Source: Shigella phage ESh20
Length of the DNA: 64,000 bases
Strand: one strand, 5' to 3'
Sequence record: ON528730
Below are positions 11,036 through 62,842 of the stretch, one piece after another; the first letter of the stretch is position 1; every line of letters begins with the position of its first letter. Made by a program: the position numbers and the translations under genes. Below the pieces are notes generated by a model. That model worked only from the letters and a program-made list of their open reading frames with translations. It had not been told where the DNA came from and ran no database searches.

Positions 11036-13735
11036 ATGGACAATGTAGATTTCGAAAAATTACATTTGGTTGGTGATACAGAAACTGATGGGTTGCTCCT
11101 TGAGTTTACAAAAGCACACGTAATGGCTTTCGCAGACTATAAAGATGACAGTGATGAACCTGCTGTGTGGGTTTTCACTGATGAGCCTATTCTTGGTCAC
11201 AAGTATACAAAATACATCAAAGGTGGTCTGCGTGAAGGTGTTGAGTTTGCACTGAAAGCTAAACGTCTTTGCATACATAATGGTTTAGGTTATGACTGGT
11301 GGGTGTTTAATCACATTGCACCTGACCTGTGGAACTTTGAGAATCCTAAGTGCAAGCCTTGGAGTGACTTCTTTCAGGATTCACTTATCCAATCTCGCGT
11401 ACAGTGGATGGATAGACCTACACCAAAAGGTTACAAAGGTGCTCATGGTTTGGCTGCATGGGGTGCTCGTGTTGGTGTTCGTAAACCAGAGATTGAAGAG
11501 TGGGGTGTCTGGAATGCAGAGATTCTTACTCGTGTTGTAGAAGATATTAAGATTAACGCCAAAACTAAACGTGCTCTTGATAATGAGTACCTCAAGCTTA
11601 AGAAGTGTGGTGTTGACACTTATGAAACCTACATGCGAGCTAAAGAAACATCTTTCTGGATGAGTCAGCAAGCTATCAACGGTTGGAAAGCTGATGTAGA
11701 ACTTATGCAGTTCCACGTTAAAGAGCTTGACAAGTTAACTAATGAGTTGGCTGCTGAGGTTGAACCACACCTTCCACCAACTATTAAGACAAAAGGTAAA
11801 GTCACAGGTGAAGAATTTGCCAAGTCTTGGAATGAGTATGTAGATACATTTGGTCACGTTGACGGTTTAAAAAGGATTACCAAGCACCCTAAGACAAAGT
11901 ATCGTGAACAGATGCGTGAAGGTGAGTTGAAGCAGTACCCTATCAAGCCATATGGTAAGCCAACCACAAAGATTTTTAATGTTGAGAAACGCAACTGCTA
12001 CACTCCAACTAACACGGTCACAAAAGAAGAGTACCCTGAAGGTTTTGTAGCAATGAAAGATGCTCGTGCAGTTTGTAATGAACTGAATGAGAAGATTGGC
12101 AAGAAGTGTAAAGATTGGAAGCCAGTTAAGACTGTGAAAACTGTGAAGTACTACAACGTTCACGTTGTTAATCACTTTGAGTTAGAGTCTAGTCGCTACA
12201 CTGGTTTGATTGATGCACCATTCACACCAATTGAGTTTGAAGTTTCACGAATGACTCAGGTAGCTGTGGTGAAGGATTACTTAAAATCCGTTGGCTGGAT
12301 TCCTGATGATTGGAACTATAAAAAAGATTCTGACGGTCGTCCTATCAAGGTTTGCAGGTTCAAAGACAACAAAAAGATGATTCGCAAACATCCTAAGTGG
12401 GATGAGATGGTTGAACGTTGTGGGTTGAACTATATTGAGCATGAAGGTGTCTACTACATCGAGCATAACTGGTCTGTTAAGAAGTACACAGATGTGCTTG
12501 AACCTTGCTTGATTAGGACTTCACCAAAGCTTACAGAGTCTTCTTATGATACAATCGAAGGTGAGCTTGGACAGAAGATTGCGAAGTACTATACTTTGAT
12601 GCACCGACGCAGGACTATTGAGAACTCAAAGGATGATGAGAAAGGTTGGCTGAACCAGATTCGTCCAGATGGTCGTTTGAGTGCAGGTGCAATGGTGTTT
12701 GGTACTTCTACTGGACGTATGACTCAGTATGGTATTGTAAACGTACCTTCTGGTGCTGCTGTTTACGGTGAGCCAATGAGGGCAGTGTGGATTTGTGAAG
12801 AAGGAACCAACGTAGTATCTGTTGATATGAACTCTGCACAGCTTGTACTACTCTGTAACTTCATGGGTGATAAAGACTTCACCAAAGCGGTAACAGAGGG
12901 TAAAGAAGAGATTGAGTTTGTTCGTCAAGAGGATGGAAGATACTACTGCAAACACTTTGACCAGTATCTGAATCCAGAGATTGACAAGTATCTGCGTTAT
13001 GACTCTGAAAACGATTTGTACGTAGTTTACTCAGGGACTGATGCTCACACTCTGAACAGTATCTACTTCAGCCTTAATGATGAGCAAGATATCTTGACTT
13101 GTCGTGCTACTCAGGATGAGAATCTTCTTCATGAGATTAGCAAGGGACGTAAGAAAGCTAAGAATGGTATCTATGCCCTGTTGTTCGGTGCAGGTGATGA
13201 GAAGTTTGCTAAAACAATTAAAGCAGCAACTACTCAGGAAGGTGCATTGACTAAGCAGACTTACTTTGTGCGTTTGCCGAAGATTAAGAAACTGTTAGAC
13301 AACTTGGAAGCTGATTTCAAAGCAACTAAGAAAGCACTTGAAGAGGTGTTTGGTAAAACTGCTGCGATAGCTAAAGGTGGTTTTGTGAAGGTTGCTGGAG
13401 CTTGGCTGTGGTGTAAGTCTCCACACAAGCTGTTAAATTACCTTTTGATGGGTTCAGAAAGTCAAGTCCAGAATGAAGCAATTAACCTTGCATGTCGTAG
13501 AGCATATGATGAAGGGTTGATGAAACTAAATGGGCGTAAGCCAGCTATTGGAGCTAGACTTCTTCTGGCATACCACGACGAAAATAGTTGGGAATGTCCA
13601 GAAAGTATGACTCAAGAAGTTAAGGCTATTACTGACTGGATGTACGGACAAGCTTCTAAAAACCTTGGACTAAGGAAAGAAACCTTGGTAACAGGTACTG
13701 GTAAAGTTGGTAAGAGCTGGTTGGAAGTTCACTAA
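11036..13735 (+). CDS. DNA polymerase, family A, with 3'-5' exonuclease domain
   Basis: Exo I motif DTETDGL; motif B-like RKKAKNGIYALLFG; motif C HDE. Confidence 0.9.
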   Translation: MDNVDFEKLHLVGDTETDGLLLEFTKAHVMAFADYKDDSDEPAVWVFTDEPILGHKYTKYIKGGLREGVEFALKAKRLCIHNGLGYDWWVFNHIAPDLWNFENPKCKPWSDFFQDSLIQSRVQWMDRPTPKGYKGAHGLAAWGARVGVRKPEIEEWGVWNAEILTRVVEDIKINAKTKRALDNEYLKLKKCGVDTYETYMRAKETSFWMSQQAINGWKADVELMQFHVKELDKLTNELAAEVEPHLPPTIKTKGKVTGEEFAKSWNEYVDTFGHVDGLKRITKHPKTKYREQMREGELKQYPIKPYGKPTTKIFNVEKRNCYTPTNTVTKEEYPEGFVAMKDARAVCNELNEKIGKKCKDWKPVKTVKTVKYYNVHVVNHFELESSRYTGLIDAPFTPIEFEVSRMTQVAVVKDYLKSVGWIPDDWNYKKDSDGRPIKVCRFKDNKKMIRKHPKWDEMVERCGLNYIEHEGVYYIEHNWSVKKYTDVLEPCLIRTSPKLTESSYDTIEGELGQKIAKYYTLMHRRRTIENSKDDEKGWLNQIRPDGRLSAGAMVFGTSTGRMTQYGIVNVPSGAAVYGEPMRAVWICEEGTNVVSVDMNSAQLVLLCNFMGDKDFTKAVTEGKEEIEFVRQEDGRYYCKHFDQYLNPEIDKYLRYDSENDLYVVYSGTDAHTLNSIYFSLNDEQDILTCRATQDENLLHEISKGRKKAKNGIYALLFGAGDEKFAKTIKAATTQEGALTKQTYFVRLPKIKKLLDNLEADFKATKKALEEVFGKTAAIAKGGFVKVAGAWLWCKSPHKLLNYLLMGSESQVQNEAINLACRRAYDEGLMKLNGRKPAIGARLLLAYHDENSWECPESMTQEVKAITDWMYGQASKNLGLRKETLVTGTGKVGKSWLEVH

Positions 13736-13744
13736 GGTGTTGAA

Positions 13745-14272
13745 ATGCTTACAAAAAATCGTTTAAAGGAGCTTTTAGAATATGACCCCGATACAGGGGT
13801 CTTTACTTGGTTACCAAGAGATGGGAATACACGTTCTGTTAAAGTTTTTAATAGTAGGTATGCAGGGAAAGTAGCTGGCAGCATTCAAGTAGACTCTTCA
13901 AAACACAAGCAGTTGGTTATCTATGTTGACAAAAAGAGTTACAAAGCACACAGACTCGCATGGCTGTATATGTATGGTGAACTCCCAGATGGTATAGTTG
14001 ACCACAAAAACGGAGACTCGCTGGATAATAGGTTTGTTAATCTAAGACTTGTTGATGATTATCAAAGTGCATGGAATAAAGGTAAGTTACTGACAAACAA
14101 ATCTGGATTCAAAGGGGTTTCCAGAAAGAAGAGAACTGGAAGGTGGGTTGCACAAATAAGCTACAAAGGTAAGAAGATACATATAGGAACTTATGACACA
14201 CCTGAAGAAGCCCATGAAGCTTACTGTGAAGCTGCTATAAAACTCCACGGGGATTTTGCAAAACTTAGTTGA
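13745..14272 (+). CDS. HNH homing endonuclease with AP2 DNA-binding domain
   Basis: HNH motif AHRLAWLYMYGELPDGIVDHKNGDSLDNRFVNLRL; AP2-like GVSRKKRTGRWVAQISYKGKKIHIGTYDTPEEAHEAY. Confidence 0.8.
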   Translation: MLTKNRLKELLEYDPDTGVFTWLPRDGNTRSVKVFNSRYAGKVAGSIQVDSSKHKQLVIYVDKKSYKAHRLAWLYMYGELPDGIVDHKNGDSLDNRFVNLRLVDDYQSAWNKGKLLTNKSGFKGVSRKKRTGRWVAQISYKGKKIHIGTYDTPEEAHEAYCEAAIKLHGDFAKLS

Positions 14273-14324: not shown

Positions 14325-14525
14325 ATGACTATTTCAGAAATTGAAGTTCAACTGCAATGTGCTGGATATTCTCAAAGTGAGATTGAGGCTATGTGCATCA
14401 TCATTTGCAGTAGCCATAAGCACCTCAAGCTTTCTAATGAAAATCTTCGCAAGGTTGATATTTTTATTGCTGGAGGTAAGATTATCAAGGATAAGACAGG
14501 CTACCTTAAAGGTGAACGTCTATGA
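14325..14525 (+). CDS. Hypothetical protein (66 aa)
   Basis: ORF track; RBS TAGGAGA upstream; ATGA overlap with next gene. Confidence 0.5.
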   Translation: MTISEIEVQLQCAGYSQSEIEAMCIIICSSHKHLKLSNENLRKVDIFIAGGKIIKDKTGYLKGERL

Positions 14526-14731
14526 GCCACCGTGGAAGAACCCATCTCGCCATGATGCAAGGTGCTTCAAAAGAGACTATCAAGAATCGGAAGAAAACTC
14601 TTTTTGACAGAATGAATAGACTCATTGATAATGCAAGCCTACCTAACTCTGAAAAGGTTTTCTTGAAAGGGAATCTGAAGAGTATTGCACAGGAACTTAT
14701 TGACATTGAATTTTGGAGACACCAAAAATGA
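14522..14731 (+). CDS. Hypothetical protein (69 aa)
   Basis: ORF track; ATGA overlaps on both sides. Confidence 0.5.
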   Translation: MSHRGRTHLAMMQGASKETIKNRKKTLFDRMNRLIDNASLPNSEKVFLKGNLKSIAQELIDIEFWRHQK

Positions 14732-14814
14732 CATACGAAGAAGCTCTCGAAGCTATGAAACAGGGCAAGAAAGTTCGAAATGAAAATTTCACATCTGAGA
14801 GTTCTTTGAAATAA
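14728..14814 (+). pseudogene. Truncated or frameshifted small ORF with DUF2829-like N-terminus
   Basis: Own translation MTYEEALEAMKQGKKVRNENFTSESSLK then stop; an overlapping frame stays open 14799-14915. Confidence 0.35.
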
Positions 14815-15037
14815 AAGACGGAAAGGTTGTATGTGAAATGGGTTACCCAATGGCTGCATGGTACAAGGGGGAACCTTGGCAGAAAACTGGATGGAGTATC
14901 TTTAATGAAACTTTATAGCATTTGGGGAAGAGTTGGTGAAGGTTATGACTGGACTCTTCTTAAAACAAATGTTAAAAGTAACGAGATAGCTTACTACAAA
15001 ATCTATTACCATAAAACTTTTAGAGAGGTAGAGTATC

Positions 15038-15289
15038 GTGAGCAATAAAGAGCAAGAAGCTTTAGCAATCTTCAAGAGCGAAGACAAATCAATAGCTTTT
15101 GTCTCAGAGGCTTGGTGCAGGGATTTGGGGTATGATTGGTATATCTTCTTATGCGCTAAGAAAGATGTTAAACCAGTTGATGAAACCCGATTCAAAGAAC
15201 TGTATAATATCTGCCAAGAGGGTTATGAAGAACATTACGAAGGTTCTTTGAATCCTGTAAATTCAAAAGCTTCAGATTTATTTTATTGA
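15038..15289 (+). CDS. Hypothetical protein (83 aa), GTG start
   Basis: ORF track. Confidence 0.45.
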   Translation: MSNKEQEALAIFKSEDKSIAFVSEAWCRDLGYDWYIFLCAKKDVKPVDETRFKELYNICQEGYEEHYEGSLNPVNSKASDLFY

Positions 15290-46968: not shown

Positions 46969-47194
46969 AACGAACTCTTGAAAGAATATATGCGTTATTG
47001 CAAGTATCCTTATTTTCAGGTAGTGATGTTTCGAAGATAACTTGCTTAAGTTCTAATCCAGCAAAGTTATAAACAATCTTTCTAACTTCTAACGGGTCAC
47101 ATTGCCAACCAACCGCTATAAAGAAAGTATCTCCAAATCTACCTGTTTCAATCTTGTGGTCATCTTTATGTTTTTCAACTATGAGTTTATACAT
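46967..47194 (-). CDS. Hypothetical protein within tRNA array (75 aa)
   Basis: ORF track; fills gap between two tRNAs. Confidence 0.35.
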   Translation of the reverse strand: MYKLIVEKHKDDHKIETGRFGDTFFIAVGWQCDPLEVRKIVYNFAGLELKQVIFETSLPENKDTCNNAYILSRVR

Positions 47195-47212
47195 AATGTT
47201 ACCTATTAAATT

Positions 47213-47289
47213 TGGTGCAGAATAGAGGATTCGAACCTCTAACTAACAACTTCGTAGGTTGCTGCTCTATCCATTTGAACTAATTCTGC
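47213..47289 (-). tRNA. tRNA-Arg (anticodon ACG)
   Basis: Perfect acceptor GCAGAAT, T-arm AGAGG-TTCGAAT-CCTCT, anticodon loop CTACGAA. Confidence 0.7.
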
Positions 47290-47467
47290 AATATCCTTTT
47301 GAGATTCCTGTCTAGCTCTCTTCTTATCTCTTCTGAGAAAGCGTTTACGATGGTCTGTACGCCATTTGTAATAATCTTCTTCACCATCATGTGCTGCACA
47401 GCAGCCACAACTTGCAATTTCAACTTTACCATGTCTACCATAAGGCTTCATAGGAATCTCCTAAAAT

Positions 47468-47545
47468 TGGTGTTCCAAGACGGATTCGAACCGTCACTAA
47501 TACAAGGTTTGAGCTTGCATCCTCTGCCAATTGGGATACTGGAAC
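47468..47545 (-). tRNA. tRNA with Leu-type anticodon CAA (tentative), short variable region
   Basis: T-arm GACGG-TTCGAAT-CCGTC, anticodon arm GCAAG-CTCAAAC-CTTGT, D-loop with CCAATTGG. Confidence 0.45.
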
Positions 47546-47546
47546 T

Positions 47547-47621
47547 TGGTACTCGCTGAAGGACTTGAACCTTCTTCACCAACTTGTAAGGATGGAGCTT
47601 TACCATATAAACTAAGCGAGC
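47547..47621 (-). tRNA. tRNA-Val (anticodon TAC)
   Basis: T-arm GAAGG-TTCAAGT-CCTTC, anticodon loop CTTACAA. Confidence 0.55.
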
Positions 47622-47716
47622 TTTGAAGAGGTCTGAAGCTGTGCCGCTAACTCAACTCCGTGGAATTTGTTACGGTCTTCAGTTGACTCAAGCGGTCTTT
47701 CACTTGACCTCAAAAT

Positions 47717-47792
47717 TGGTGCTCCCACAAGGATTCGAACCCTGATAAGTTGCTTACAAGGCAACCGTAATAGCCAATTATACGATAAGAGC
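47717..47792 (-). tRNA. tRNA-Thr (anticodon TGT)
   Basis: T-loop TTCGAAT, anticodon arm GTTGC-CTTGTAA-GCAAC, acceptor with two G:U pairs. Confidence 0.55.
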
Positions 47793-47798
47793 ATTATT

Positions 47799-47873
47799 TG
47801 GAGCATCCAGAGGGAATCGAACCCTCAACCTCAGTTTGGAAGACTGTAATTTTCCCGTTTAAACTATGGATGC
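47799..47873 (-). tRNA. tRNA-Gly (anticodon TCC)
   Basis: Perfect acceptor GCATCCA, T-arm GAGGG-TTCGATT-CCCTC, anticodon loop CTTCCAA. Confidence 0.7.
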
Positions 47874-47879
47874 ACTAAT

Positions 47880-47955
47880 TGGTGGAGAAGCAGGGAATTG
47901 AACCCTGTACTTAAGTTTGCAAAACTTATGTTTTAACCATGTAAACTACATCCCC
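47880..47955 (-). tRNA. tRNA-Ala (anticodon TGC)
   Basis: T-arm CAGGG-TTCAATT-CCCTG, anticodon loop TTTGCAA, G3:U70 wobble pair characteristic of tRNA-Ala. Confidence 0.7.
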
Positions 47956-47961
47956 ATTGTT

Positions 47962-48037
47962 TGGTACAGGTGGAGGGAATTGAACCCATCATCTTACTGA
48001 TTAAGAGTCAGCCGCATAACCATTTTGCTACACCTGC
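47962..48037 (-). tRNA. tRNA-Lys (anticodon CTT), T-stem with only 3 clean pairs
   Basis: Acceptor GCAGGTG/CACCTGT, anticodon arm CTGA-CTCTTAA-TCAG, T-loop TTCAATT. Confidence 0.5.
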
Positions 48038-48043
48038 ATTAAT

Positions 48044-48120
48044 TTGGTACACCTAGAGAGATTCGAACTCACACTGAGCAGATTCTAAGTCTGCTGCCTC
48101 TTCCAATTGGGCTATAGGTG
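48044..48120 (-). tRNA. tRNA with Leu-type anticodon TAG (tentative), short variable region
   Basis: Anticodon arm GCAGA-CTTAGAA-TCTGC, 3-bp D stem with loop CAATTGGAAGA. Confidence 0.45.
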
Positions 48121-48376
48121 CATTAAATCTTTGTAGAGAACTGCTAAGACGCCAAAGCAACAATGGTATCAAATGCCTTAACAATTCTCTAAAAAGACCT
48201 ATTGGCCTTTGCATAGTCTTGCTTAATCCGGTGACTAGAACCTTTGGAGAGCTTGATACTATCTCTTCTCCGTGACACCTACTAGGTGCTTTACCAGTGC
48301 CGTGTACGCCAATACACGAAGAGGAAACCTGAAACACTTGCTCGAACAAATAGTCTCAGCTTTAAATCTTATTAGG

Positions 48377-48464
48377 CGGTAGATAAAGGAGTCGAACCCT
48401 CACCGTATCTCTACAATGGCAATAGTTTTCAAGACTATTTGGCTTCCATTAGCCGCTACCTACC
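48377..48464 (-). tRNA. tRNA-Ser (anticodon TGA), type II, CCA not encoded
   Basis: T-loop TTCGACT, long variable region, anticodon arm ATAGT-CTTGAAA-ACTAT, acceptor GGTAGGT/ATCTACC. Confidence 0.5.
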
Positions 48465-48477
48465 CCTAATAAGACTT

Positions 48478-48560
48478 TGGCATGGGACGGAGGATTCGAA
48501 CCCCTTTGAGTAAGTTTTGGAGGCTTACGCACATGCCTTAGTGTCTTAACATCGTCCCAT
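48478..48560 (-). tRNA. tRNA-Trp (anticodon CCA), enlarged D region
   Basis: Perfect 7-bp acceptor ATGGGAC/GTCCCAT, T-loop TTCGAAT, anticodon loop CTCCAAA, about 8 extra nt in D region. Confidence 0.5.
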
Positions 48561-48724
48561 ACTATATTTCGAAGCTTACCCTGTTATCTCAACACTGTCA
48601 AGCTTCTTCTCAGATTATTTACATGTTCTGGAAAACATGAGATACAGACCACCTCCTTATGAGATTGACTCTTTCAAGTCAATGCGGAGACCCATAAAGG
48701 TCGTCATAGTAATCTGCTAACTAA

Positions 48725-48843
48725 TTGGCAGTCAAGGTAGGAGTCGAACCTACTTACTATTAAAGGGAGCTACCCTTCAGCAACTATCCGACTTTCGTTT
48801 ATCTCTTAACGCGTATCCAAGATAACTTACTCGTGTTGTCTTG
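48725..48843 (-). ncRNA. tRNA-like element with about 40-nt internal insertion (not a canonical tRNA)
   Basis: CCA-rc and 7-bp acceptor AGTCAAG paired with CTTGACC 119 nt apart; canonical T-arm GTAGG-TTCGACT-CCTAC; no canonical anticodon arm identified. Confidence 0.4.
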
Positions 48844-48854
48844 ACCATTAAAAT

Positions 48855-56090: not shown

Positions 56091-56466
56091 AGAGATTCAA
56101 GTCAAAGTTGACACTTCGCGTCATGGTGTTCAAGATTTGGAATTAGTTGATGCTTCCATCTATGAACGTGATGGGGAGCTTTTCCTTCATTTTACAAAGG
56201 CTGATAATGAGCTTATCCGTGTACGTGATGATGAAGATGGTTGCCCTGTTTTTGGTTGGTATGGTGTTGATTTCCCGTTATACGCTTACCACTACCCAGA
56301 TGGTCAGGAAGATTGGACTACACAAGCTATCTTTGATGAACTGAATGGTGTACCTCTGGAAGATGAGGTTACAGAACCAACTCTTCTAACTTTCACCTTC
56401 ATCAAAGAAGAAAAAGTCGGTGATATCTCCGTAACAGAAGCGTTGCAAGTTACACAGGTACTTTGA
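56087..56466 (+). CDS. Hypothetical protein (about 126 aa)
   Basis: ORF track frame; start set to ATG 56087 with RBS AGAGAGG. Confidence 0.45.
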
Positions 56467-59545: not shown

Positions 59546-59839
59546 ATGAGTTTAAATTTGAAAGAAGGTCAGAAGGTTGTTATTGTTGACTACGACACAA
59601 AAAGCCTATTAACAAAAGGTGTGGTTACTGATATTGGTTCATCAGGAAATTACCCTATTGGTGTTAAAATTGATGAACCCTTTGTAATAGGTTCTGATGA
59701 CAAAGATGAGTTGTCTTTTCTCACAGGTGAGAGACTAACTTTCAACGGAGAATACCTATACCGTGGACATGTACATGAAGACCACAAGAAATGGGATTTA
59801 GAAGTGTTATCCGAAGAATACTATAACAAAAATTATTGA
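59546..59839 (+). CDS. Hypothetical protein (97 aa)
   Basis: ORF track. Confidence 0.5.
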   Translation: MSLNLKEGQKVVIVDYDTKSLLTKGVVTDIGSSGNYPIGVKIDEPFVIGSDDKDELSFLTGERLTFNGEYLYRGHVHEDHKKWDLEVLSEEYYNKNY

Positions 59840-59848
59840 GGCAAAACT

Positions 59849-60145: not shown

Positions 60146-60566
60146 AGAGACAGTACGCAAAGCTATGCTTAACAATGGTACTAAAGATGATATGTATAAA
60201 GATATCGTCGAAGACCTTGGTTGTTCAAGACATGCTGCAAAGGTTCTTCTTCATAGCTTTATCTGGGAGTGTTCAGAAGCTTACATGCAATCTGTAATAA
60301 CTGAAGGGCTTGATATGTCTCTACCTGAACGCTTCAAAGAAGAGACTAAGGCTAGTTCCATAAAGCTAAACACACTCTATATTGTAGAAACCGTTGATAC
60401 AGGTGAACCAGTAGGCACAATACATATTGAAAGTATGTGTGATGGTAAGTTCCTTGGTTATGGTGAAGCAAACGCATATAGTGCATTCTCAACCGCACAC
60501 TGGATAGTTGAAAATGATGGGTATATTCAGGTCAATGGTAAAAATACTTTCAAACTTAAGATGTGA
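60132..60566 (+). CDS. Hypothetical protein (about 144 aa)
   Basis: ORF track frame; start set to ATG 60132. Confidence 0.45.
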   Translation: MKNVKETVRKAMLNNGTKDDMYKDIVEDLGCSRHAAKVLLHSFIWECSEAYMQSVITEGLDMSLPERFKEETKASSIKLNTLYIVETVDTGEPVGTIHIESMCDGKFLGYGEANAYSAFSTAHWIVENDGYIQVNGKNTFKLKM

Positions 60567-61234
60567 TTATGGGACACCTACTGAAGAAGAGTTGGAAGAA
60601 CTTAACAGATATGGTTCCCCATCTGAAGAGGGAGAGAAAGAACTCAGAAGAATGGGAAGCAATTACTAAGAAATGTTTTAAGGATTTGATAGAGATGAAA
60701 AAGTTTGAACTTGAAAGAAAGTATCTGGTACTTAGCCTAGATGATATCAACACACATCTTGACGAAAGTGAGAAGTGGTCTTTAGACTTACTTGTTAATC
60801 GACTTAAGATGGAACGAGAAGATTCAGGTAAAGAGCCACTTGAAGGTGTCTTTGTCAAGAAGTCTTATCCGTTCTATGAAGATACTTTGAAGAAACTTGA
60901 GATGTATGTTAAGCAGCAGAACCGTAAAGAGTTCTCTATGATTTCTCTTGGTGGACAACAAATGCTGGTTATGGAAGATATAAACCCTAAGAGAACCAAC
61001 AAAGGTGTTTGTATCAAGGTCACAGGTAAAGAAGAATTTGTTGAATATGACATACTCAGACACATTATAGATGGTTTGGGTGTTGTACTGAACATGAATG
61101 AATACCATATTAGTTCACACCCGATTAAGGGTGACCAGATAATGATTCAGGTAAGAGAACGTCATAATGGGTTCACACACTTCTTCCAGACTTCTAAAAC
61201 TTCATTGCAAACTATGCTTAGTGAAGTGATGTAA
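60563..61234 (+). CDS. Hypothetical protein (223 aa)
   Basis: ORF track. Confidence 0.5.
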   Translation: MIMGHLLKKSWKNLTDMVPHLKRERKNSEEWEAITKKCFKDLIEMKKFELERKYLVLSLDDINTHLDESEKWSLDLLVNRLKMEREDSGKEPLEGVFVKKSYPFYEDTLKKLEMYVKQQNRKEFSMISLGGQQMLVMEDINPKRTNKGVCIKVTGKEEFVEYDILRHIIDGLGVVLNMNEYHISSHPIKGDQIMIQVRERHNGFTHFFQTSKTSLQTMLSEVM

Positions 61235-61242
61235 AACTATAC

Positions 61243-61267
61243 AGCCCCTTAATTGGGGCTTTTTATT
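61243..61267 (+). terminator. Rho-independent terminator ending the plus-strand block
   Basis: AGCCCC-ttaatt-GGGGCT followed by TTTTTATT. Confidence 0.7.
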
Positions 61268-61269
61268 GA

Positions 61270-62842
61270 GTAAAATTTACGAAATTTATAATTTTTATAA
61301 AATTTGGGATTCACTCCGTTCATCTTGGGTCACCATGATATGTGATAAAATATCTATACCCTTCTAAACACCCTCTCTAAGCATCATCTCTATATAGTAT
61401 TATATAGTATCTATATAGCCTCTTAGTCCCTAAATAGTGCTCTCTATATAGCCCTCTATAAAGCCTTCTAAGCCTCCCATTAATCAACCCTATACAATCA
61501 CCTTCCTAACCTCTTCCTAGCCCCTTAGGAGCCCCTATACTCATCTTAATCTCTAGGTAAACGATAGTACCCTATATAGCAGAATCACTAGGTATTACTA
61601 AGCCTCTATATAGACTGTTATATAACACTAAACAGGTATTCCCTGTAAAGGCTTATCCTACAAGGTCTAACACGGCACTAACAAGGTCTCTTATAAGCCT
61701 GTTAATTCCTGTTTTATATAAGATAGTGTATAGATAGTTATTCAGAATTATAAAATTTTTATAAAATAGACTAGGTAGTGTTTATTTAGGGGTCTTTGGA
61801 GAATCTGAAAAATATCTACTTAGGATGTATATCTGCTTGGTAGCCCTTAACAGCCCTGTAACATCCCCTTTGCAAAATCTTAAAATATCATTAACAATCT
61901 CTTAACAACTCTCCCAAGCTCTTAACATCTCTTCAAAGTTCTTAACAGTCTCTTAACAGAACTAACAAGAGCTTAACAAGTCTGTAACATTGCTTACAAG
62001 AGTCTAACAAGTTGCTTATAAGTTGCTAAATAGTTAAATCTTAAGAGTTATTTTGTTAAGATAATTAACAAGATGCTAACAAGTTCTAAACCTTTTTAAC
62101 AAGCTATTAACATGGTCACAGTGGTTGTTTACAAACACAACTTCTCTTGGTCTATAGCTCCCTATGCTTCTTAGTGATTCTCTATAAAGCCCTCTTAAAA
62201 GCTCTGTATAGCTCTGTATAGCCTCTTCTAAGGTTCTCCCTAGTAACTACACCCCAACTACCTGTATAGCTCTTTATAGGGCTTTCTAGGGGCTTATACA
62301 GGGACTTCAAAGAGTCTAACAAGCTTTTAACATACCACTAACAAGGATTTAACAAGGGGCTAACAAGTCTCTAATAAGCATAACTATGTAGCATTTGTTA
62401 AGATTTTGTTAAGAGAATGTAAAGGGGGCTAACTTTTACGTTACTTTTACGTTACTTTTACGTTACTTTTACGTTACTTTTACGTTACTTTTAAGCTCTT
62501 TTTAGTTCCCCATAACACATTACTAAGTAACTAGCAAGCCCCCTGTTTAACTATTCACAAGATTCTATCCAGCTTATAAGCTTATACCCTTATAAGATTC
62601 TTTTAAGGCTCTGGAAAGCTCTATAAAGGGCTTTTAAGAGTAGGTTAATATGATTGCTTAAGATGAGATGATAAGCCCGTATAGAGCGTTATAGAGCGTT
62701 TTAGGGATTGCCCTTCCCTTTCGGGTTATGGGCTTATATTTAAGTTGATTTGATAAGAGGATATAGAGTAAGCTATAGAGTTATTGTTCTAAATGTATGA
62801 GATAGATTCTATCGAATCAATGGTAAGATTCTAGGAAGACGT
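61270..62842. repeat. Repeat-dense non-coding region (candidate origin / packaging region)
   Basis: About 1.6 kb without long ORFs; recurring CTATATAG, CTCTATAAAGCC, TTAACA and CTAACAAG motifs, AT-rich near-palindromes, tandem 11-mers. Confidence 0.6.
62432..62493. repeat. Tandem repeat, 11-bp unit ACTTTTACGTT x about 5.6
   Basis: Read directly: aacttttacgttacttttacgttacttttacgttacttttacgttacttttaa. Confidence 0.85.

Follow-up and report, generated by a model that had tools for sequence, protein, structure and literature searches.

A one-nucleotide frameshift in a small Tad2-like accessory gene of Shigella phage ESh20

We analysed a stretch of 64,000 nucleotides from Shigella phage ESh20 (record ON528730), referred to here as the window, which belongs to the genus Mooglevirus (Ounavirinae) and shares ~98.4% identity with Shigella phage Sf15 over 12 kb (megablast). 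At the locus under study the ATG of a small gene (14728-14730) overlaps the TGA (14729-14731) of an upstream 69-codon ORF (14522-14731), forming the tetranucleotide ATGA (14728-14731). The frame that begins at this ATG (frame 0) reads MTYEEALEAMKQGKKVRNENFTSESSLK and runs for 28 codons to a TAA at 14812-14814. The -1 frame has a TGA at 14796-14798, is then open from 14799 to 14915, ends in a TAG at 14916-14918 and reads EFFEIKDGKVVCEMGYPMAAWYKGEPWQKTGWSIFNETL; the two frames overlap by 13 nt (14799-14811). A preliminary description, made from the letters only, had reported the ORF at 14728 with its ATGA coupling, its early stop and the other open frame, and all of these statements were correct. 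The features of the locus are listed in Table 1.

Table 1. Position of the broken gene, its fragments and its neighbours in the window
Feature	Position	Strand	Remarks
Upstream gene, Sf15 gp56 homologue	14522..14731	+	69 aa, PHROG 5180, function not assigned
5' fragment of the Tad2-like gene	14728..14814	+	28 codons + TAA
Two-gene accessory cassette	14731..15040	+	310 nt here, 311 nt in Sf15
Canonical-looking slippery heptamer A_AAT_TTC	14784..14790	+	codons N20-F21
Lesion	14798..14799	+	one nucleotide missing between the two bases, codon 24 (Asp or Glu)
3' fragment, -1 frame	14799..14918	+	39 codons + TAG
G5 run	14867..14871	+	G4 at the equivalent site in Citrobacter phage KMM2
gp58 homologue, second cassette gene	14905..15048	+	47 aa, PHROG 2381, intact
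gp59 homologue, downstream of the cassette	15038..15289	+	83 aa, PHROG 9065

Comparison of the orthologous region, which the preliminary description had proposed as a check, showed that the close relatives inspected carry the gene in a single frame and that the short 28-codon ORF occurs in none of them. The gene has 63 codons at the same place in Sf15 (gp57), Sf17, Sf18, 3HA14, SFPB and KPS64, and 67 codons in Mordin, Michonne and Maleficent. An intact ORF of 63-70 codons was present in the public gene-carrying relatives inspected, with four exceptions (KMM2, ECO95 1-6-1, S.Kent 1-2-1 and vB_SflM_004) that are described below. The direct orthologues are Sf15 gp57, Michonne gp40 and PHROG 3474, a group of uncharacterised enterobacterial phage proteins of 60-70 aa; the match to PHROG 3474 had an E value of 3e-33. 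They occupy the same site, after the gp56 homologue and between the genes for DNA polymerase and DNA ligase, and are intact, whereas the window copy carries a 1-nt deletion.

A five-way DNA alignment contained exactly one gap, which removes 1 nt of codon 24 after position 14798: Sf15, KMM2 and others read TCTGATGAG at this site, Mordin and Michonne read CCTGAAGAG, and the window reads TCTGA-GAG. The closest phage records in GenBank are all one base longer than the window across the site. The 5' fragment agrees with Sf15 gp57 over residues 1-23, which comprise helix 1 and strand 1, and then runs out of frame for its final five residues (ESSLK); the 3' fragment, whose first in-frame start is the ATG at 14838, is identical to Sf15 gp57 residues 25-63. 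With one T restored after 14798, the encoded protein matches Sf15 gp57 at 100% identity, and the surrounding 351 nt show no further difference between the window and Sf15. Because the rest of this region matches Sf15 completely, the lesion is either very recent or not real. The earlier reading of a DUF2829-like ORF interrupted by a frameshift, as a pseudogene or through a sequencing error, is supported.

Among eight intact orthologues from phages of Mooglevirus and Suspvirus, pairwise Nei-Gojobori dN/dS was mostly 0.08-0.19 and reached 0.26-0.47 only in three Suspvirus pairs of low divergence. By tblastn, the protein was found in 455 of 50,697 phage records, mainly from phages of Klebsiella (169), Escherichia (110) and Salmonella (74), and in 451 of the 455 a single place accounted for 80% or more of the query. 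Searched with a profile, 1.84 billion cluster representatives yielded 232 clusters at E<0.001, most of them of 59-70 residues and aligned end to end. Within this short family M1, A6, G13, F21, E25, E37 and W56 are nearly invariant.

The only Pfam family matched was PF11195 (Tad2-like, formerly DUF2829), to which the preliminary description had likened the N-terminus. The 28-residue fragment matched it with an E value of 1.9e-4 (22.3 bits), while the 39-residue piece of the -1 frame alone and the neighbouring small genes gave no Pfam match. The joined window protein, Sf15 gp57 and Mordin gp41 scored 24.8, 24.6 and 24.9 bits, marginal values that miss the gathering score of 25 bits by 0.1-0.4 bit, and the match spans only profile positions 1-40 of 73. 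At E<0.01 the profile matched 22 of 57 family members, with a best value of 1.5e-5. The likeness goes beyond chance, since the joined frames reproduce exactly a conserved 63-residue protein of the relatives; the DUF2829 resemblance is real but weak at the sequence level, where it stays below the gathering score.

Aligned by hhalign with three solved Tad2 sequences, the profile of the short family gave a probability of 79% and an E value of 1.6e-5 over the N-terminal 30 columns. In the PDB, HMM profiles built from 9 and 57 members reached Tad2 only at E ~0.4-1, and chance matches to LIM domains ranked higher. Sequence alone was therefore too weak to reach the solved structures, and the link to Tad2 needed a comparison of folds. 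An AlphaFold2 model of an orthologue (pLDDT 90, pTM 0.74) was matched by Foldseek to solved Tad2 with probabilities of 0.91-1.00 and TM scores of 0.62-0.74 normalised to the query; the best 13 PDB matches were all Tad2 chains, and the probability collapsed beyond them. Some relatives of 60-63 residues in the BFVD viral library and UniProt are already labelled DUF2829 or Tad2-like. The model thus shows for the intact protein a predicted Tad2/AcrIIA7 (DUF2829) fold, in which an antiparallel beta sheet packs against the N-terminal helix.

The founding Thoeris anti-defence 2 protein is SPO1 Tad2 (gp34.65 of Bacillus phage SPO1, 89 aa, PDB 8SME/8SMF/8SMG), a tetramer of V-shaped dimers that are built through helix alpha2 and strand beta2; it holds gcADPR via W25, N26, W73 and D79 at a two-protomer interface (10.1101/2023.05.01.538930). 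Both it and the 63-aa short protein are small phage accessory proteins, and they share the N-terminal motif xxxEAlxAmkxGkKV and the order of an N-terminal helix followed by an antiparallel sheet with a C-terminal ...W-I-V-E-like strand. They differ in the beta2-beta3 insertion of SPO1 Tad2 (residues 36-59) with its dimer-forming helix alpha2, most of which is missing from the short protein; its model has only short helical turns at 42-44 and 50-52 and no room for an insertion of 24-41 residues. In the hhalign alignment, F21 and T22 occupy the places of W25 and N26 of SPO1 Tad2 (W and N in the GWNGKG loop), and in HMM alignments W73 lies tentatively opposite W45, while D79 faces variable residues and has no conserved counterpart. 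The residues of the gcADPR pocket are thus not matched in the short protein, in which the aromatic character is kept but the polar contacts are not. Conversely, Tad2 has no equivalent of E25 and E37, which are nearly invariant in the short family.

Two further Tad2 proteins were compared. ModTad2 from a Myroides odoratus prophage (PDB 8V3E/9EIB) soaks up His-ADPR, the signal of type II Thoeris (10.1101/2024.01.03.573942); its GWNGKG loop and its extra flanking strands, which make a second pocket, are both missing from the short family. AcrIIA7/HgmTad2 (PDB 8KBI, 8WJC and others) belongs to DUF2829 and binds gcADPR as well as cyclic dinucleotides, and in HgmTad2 and SptTad2 the binding of cyclic dinucleotides depends on a 35-41-residue insertion between beta2 and beta5 (10.1101/2023.11.15.567273). 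Because the 41-residue insertion of HgmTad2 (residues 32-72) is absent from the short protein, by that criterion the latter is not expected to bind cyclic dinucleotides. No paper connecting Tad2 with Ounavirinae, Felixounavirus or Mooglevirus turned up in a search of the literature. We class the short protein as a compact member of the Tad2 fold. By homology we infer that an immune-signal sponge is its most likely mechanism; both this function and the ligand are put forward as putative, because the PF11195 match is marginal, F21 and T22 stand in place of W25 and N26, and the insertion that forms the dimer interface is mostly missing.

Together with the 47-codon gp58 homologue, which in intact relatives overlaps its end by 14 nt, the Tad2-like gene forms a 311-nt cassette that is inserted exactly after the ATG of the gp59 homologue of cassette-free genomes. 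In those genomes the ATGA of the upstream gene directly starts the gp59 homologue, which begins with ATG there and with GTG in the window. The cassette is missing as a unit from many Mooglevirus genomes, including ESh19, Sf13, Sf14, Sf16, mistaenkt and others. Each of ten contigs with an identical upstream protein either lacked the cassette or carried the Tad2-like gene intact, as a 63-aa form or a 70-aa fusion. Dispensable but conserved wherever it occurs, the gene thus shows a pattern typical of counter-defence cargo.

The site that follows the gp56 homologue is a hot spot for cassettes, and the junction lies exactly at the start codon (ATG|cassette|AGCAAT...). Its alleles (window 14731-15040 and our comparison sequences L005, L006, L016 and L020) comprise the 311-nt pair of Tad2-like gene and gp58 homologue, nothing at all, a divergent 85-aa gp59 variant, and a 70-aa fusion of the Tad2-like protein to the gp59 tail; this 70-residue version occurs in Suspvirus phages and one metagenomic contig. 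The gp58 homologue has DNA matches of ~72% in many Felix O1-like phages without an adjoining Tad2-like gene, so the two cassette genes differ in distribution.

Independent changes in the same gene account for the four exceptions among the relatives. In KMM2 (929-1249 of L002) a G is lost from the G5 run, a separate 1-nt deletion that fuses the first 47 residues of the Tad2-like copy to the gp58 frame in a 106-aa ORF annotated as one hypothetical protein; the change could be either a second null allele or a sequencing error in the homopolymer. Escherichia phage ECO95 1-6-1 (~601-779 of L015) has a homologue of ~66% identity that is frameshifted at a different site, after ...EMHNGVMV, and Salmonella phage S.Kent 1-2-1, judged from match figures alone, gives a two-piece match with the same figures; both records are unannotated, and that of ECO95 is unverified. 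Shigella phage vB_SflM_004 (927-1178 of L007) encodes a chimeric 83-aa version of the protein, in which an unrelated 33-residue N-terminus, MTYADVIQQLHDNCYTPELIQEMCIVVMPSKFV, replaces the first 13 residues (helix 1), MTYEEALEAMKQG; a Pfam search of this chimera gave no Tad2-like match.

The best overall explanation of the locus, which we hold with moderate confidence, is a knocked-out copy of a small conserved accessory gene, the 63-aa orthologue of Sf15 gp57. The deletion at 14798/14799 itself is probably, though by no means certainly, genuine rather than an error in the consensus. To the contrary, the phage could have an intact 63-codon gene from whose sequence or assembly one T was dropped, and we give this an appreciable minority chance. 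A single inserted T is all that separates the 351-nt region from Sf15, and isolated frameshifts in the same small gene occur in a few other records, two of which are unverified assemblies. In addition, the allele was found in no other public sequence searched: an exact 26-mer over the lesion had 0 matches in IMG/VR, JGI metagenome contigs and GTDB genome contigs, and the allele was seen nowhere else in the phage collection. A private allele is, however, expected from a private mutation and from an error alike. Against an error, the missing base lies outside any homopolymer (CTGA[T]GAG), the sole run of at least five in the gene being the G5 at 14867. Nor was the window assembly found to be generally prone to indels when checked against Sf15 across 64 kb by BLAST: every other coding gap belongs to a compensating +1/-1 pair in a divergent patch, and the remaining unpaired gaps lie in intergenic or tRNA regions. 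When 244 stop-to-stop ORFs were compared, gp57 was the only annotated Sf15 gene split in the window. An error-prone assembly would look different, and we therefore consider a genuine, recent null allele the likelier reading, on the grounds that the base is not in a homopolymer, the lesion is the sole unpaired coding indel and gp57 the sole split gene.

It is very improbable that the 28-codon ORF is a functional micro-gene, possibly accompanied by a 26-residue peptide restarted at ATG 14838. Its coupled start is kept, and this ATG in the downstream frame has a weak purine-rich stretch 11 nt upstream, but the short ORF has no counterpart in the relatives, and the fragment amounts to helix 1 and strand 1 of a five-stranded fold, without the nearly invariant E25, E37 and W56; even both peptides together would be without residues 24-37.

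Scarcely credible is a programmed -1 ribosomal frameshift or other recoding that joins the two frames into a full-length protein, an option raised in the preliminary description and now refuted: despite the 13-nt overlap and the nearby canonical heptamer, the two-frame arrangement is not conserved, the intact orthologues inspected having a single-frame gene, and a -1 slip at A_AAT_TTC would meet the TGA at 14796-14798, upstream of the deletion, and rescue nothing. No X_XXY_YYZ site was found within the rescue interval (14799-14811), and the gene has no long A or T run for transcriptional slippage. The predicted RNA fold of 14800-14880 was unexceptional as a stimulatory structure (-15.2 kcal/mol against a shuffle mean of -16.1, z = 0.31).

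If the favoured reading of a knocked-out gene is right, ribosomes coupled from the upstream gene would make a 28-residue peptide and stop at 14812, leaving the remaining 39 codons unread in the -1 frame. This product should be non-functional, because it keeps helix 1 and strand 1 only and loses E25, E37 and W56. The gp58 homologue is probably still expressed, as it has its own Shine-Dalgarno sequence (GGAG, 8 nt upstream of its ATG). The deletion would be genuine and very recent, since Sf15 and the window still agree fully over the rest of the gene, and it would be tolerated because the gene lies in a dispensable two-gene cassette that is missing from about half of the genus. Judged by its fold, the intact protein may form an oligomeric sponge for a nucleotide-derived immune signal, a step with precedent in the sequestration of gcADPR, His-ADPR or cyclic dinucleotides by Tad2; should this hold, the window phage would have lost that counter-defence. 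An annotation of this genome should label the locus as a Tad2-like (pseudo)gene with a frameshift. If real, the deletion is a natural knockout of a putative counter-defence gene with near-isogenic intact relatives (Sf15, Sf17 and 3HA14), and such a pair could be used to probe the function of short Tad2-like proteins in enterobacterial phages. In other respects the case is ordinary: one accessory gene that the phage can do without carries a private loss-of-function lesion.

A more speculative proposal, which we consider rather improbable, is that the 60-70-aa proteins of the Sf15 gp57 type form a core-only branch of the Tad2 fold that sequesters an immune signal other than gcADPR, His-ADPR or cyclic dinucleotides or works by another route, and that their repeated loss stems from a host-dependent cost or counter-selection and not from simple neglect. 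It draws on the missing insertion domain, the F and T in place of W and N, and the family's own E25, E37 and W56; the losses considered are the window deletion, the frameshifts of KMM2 and ECO95, the N-terminal swap of vB_SflM_004 and the absence of the cassette from ~half of Mooglevirus. Outside the window, Sf15 encodes a nicotinamide phosphoribosyltransferase and a ribose-phosphate pyrophosphokinase (12284-15027 of L009) and a macro-domain protein (3934-4728 of L009); such proteins are linked to rebuilding NAD+ and handling ADP-ribose. If they serve these ends here, the lineage may cope otherwise with NAD-depleting TIR-type defences, even without the Tad2-like gene.

Elsewhere in the window, a gene for a 175-aa homing endonuclease with HNH_3 and AP2 domains (13745-14272, + strand; Pfam E values of 3e-15 and 3e-14) separates the DNA polymerase gene from the gp55 homologue. 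It is absent from Sf15, and Michonne, Sf13, SUSP1/2 and some metagenomic contigs have one. Compared with the rest of the polymerase gene, its adjacent end (13500-13743, the last ~240 nt) differs far more from Sf15, a pattern that resembles co-conversion during homing. The most diverged long block relative to Sf15 is the tRNA-cluster region at 47202-48730 (94.8% identity, 19 small gaps). Five short segments have no Sf15 match (46970-47201, 48731-48851, 56091-56224, 59549-59845 and 60288-60557) and so represent replaced or inserted segments. Several unpaired indels relative to Sf15 fall in 60558-62469, where Sf15 has no annotated CDS, and the area of 62065-62142 carries insertions of 11, 8 and 11 nt.
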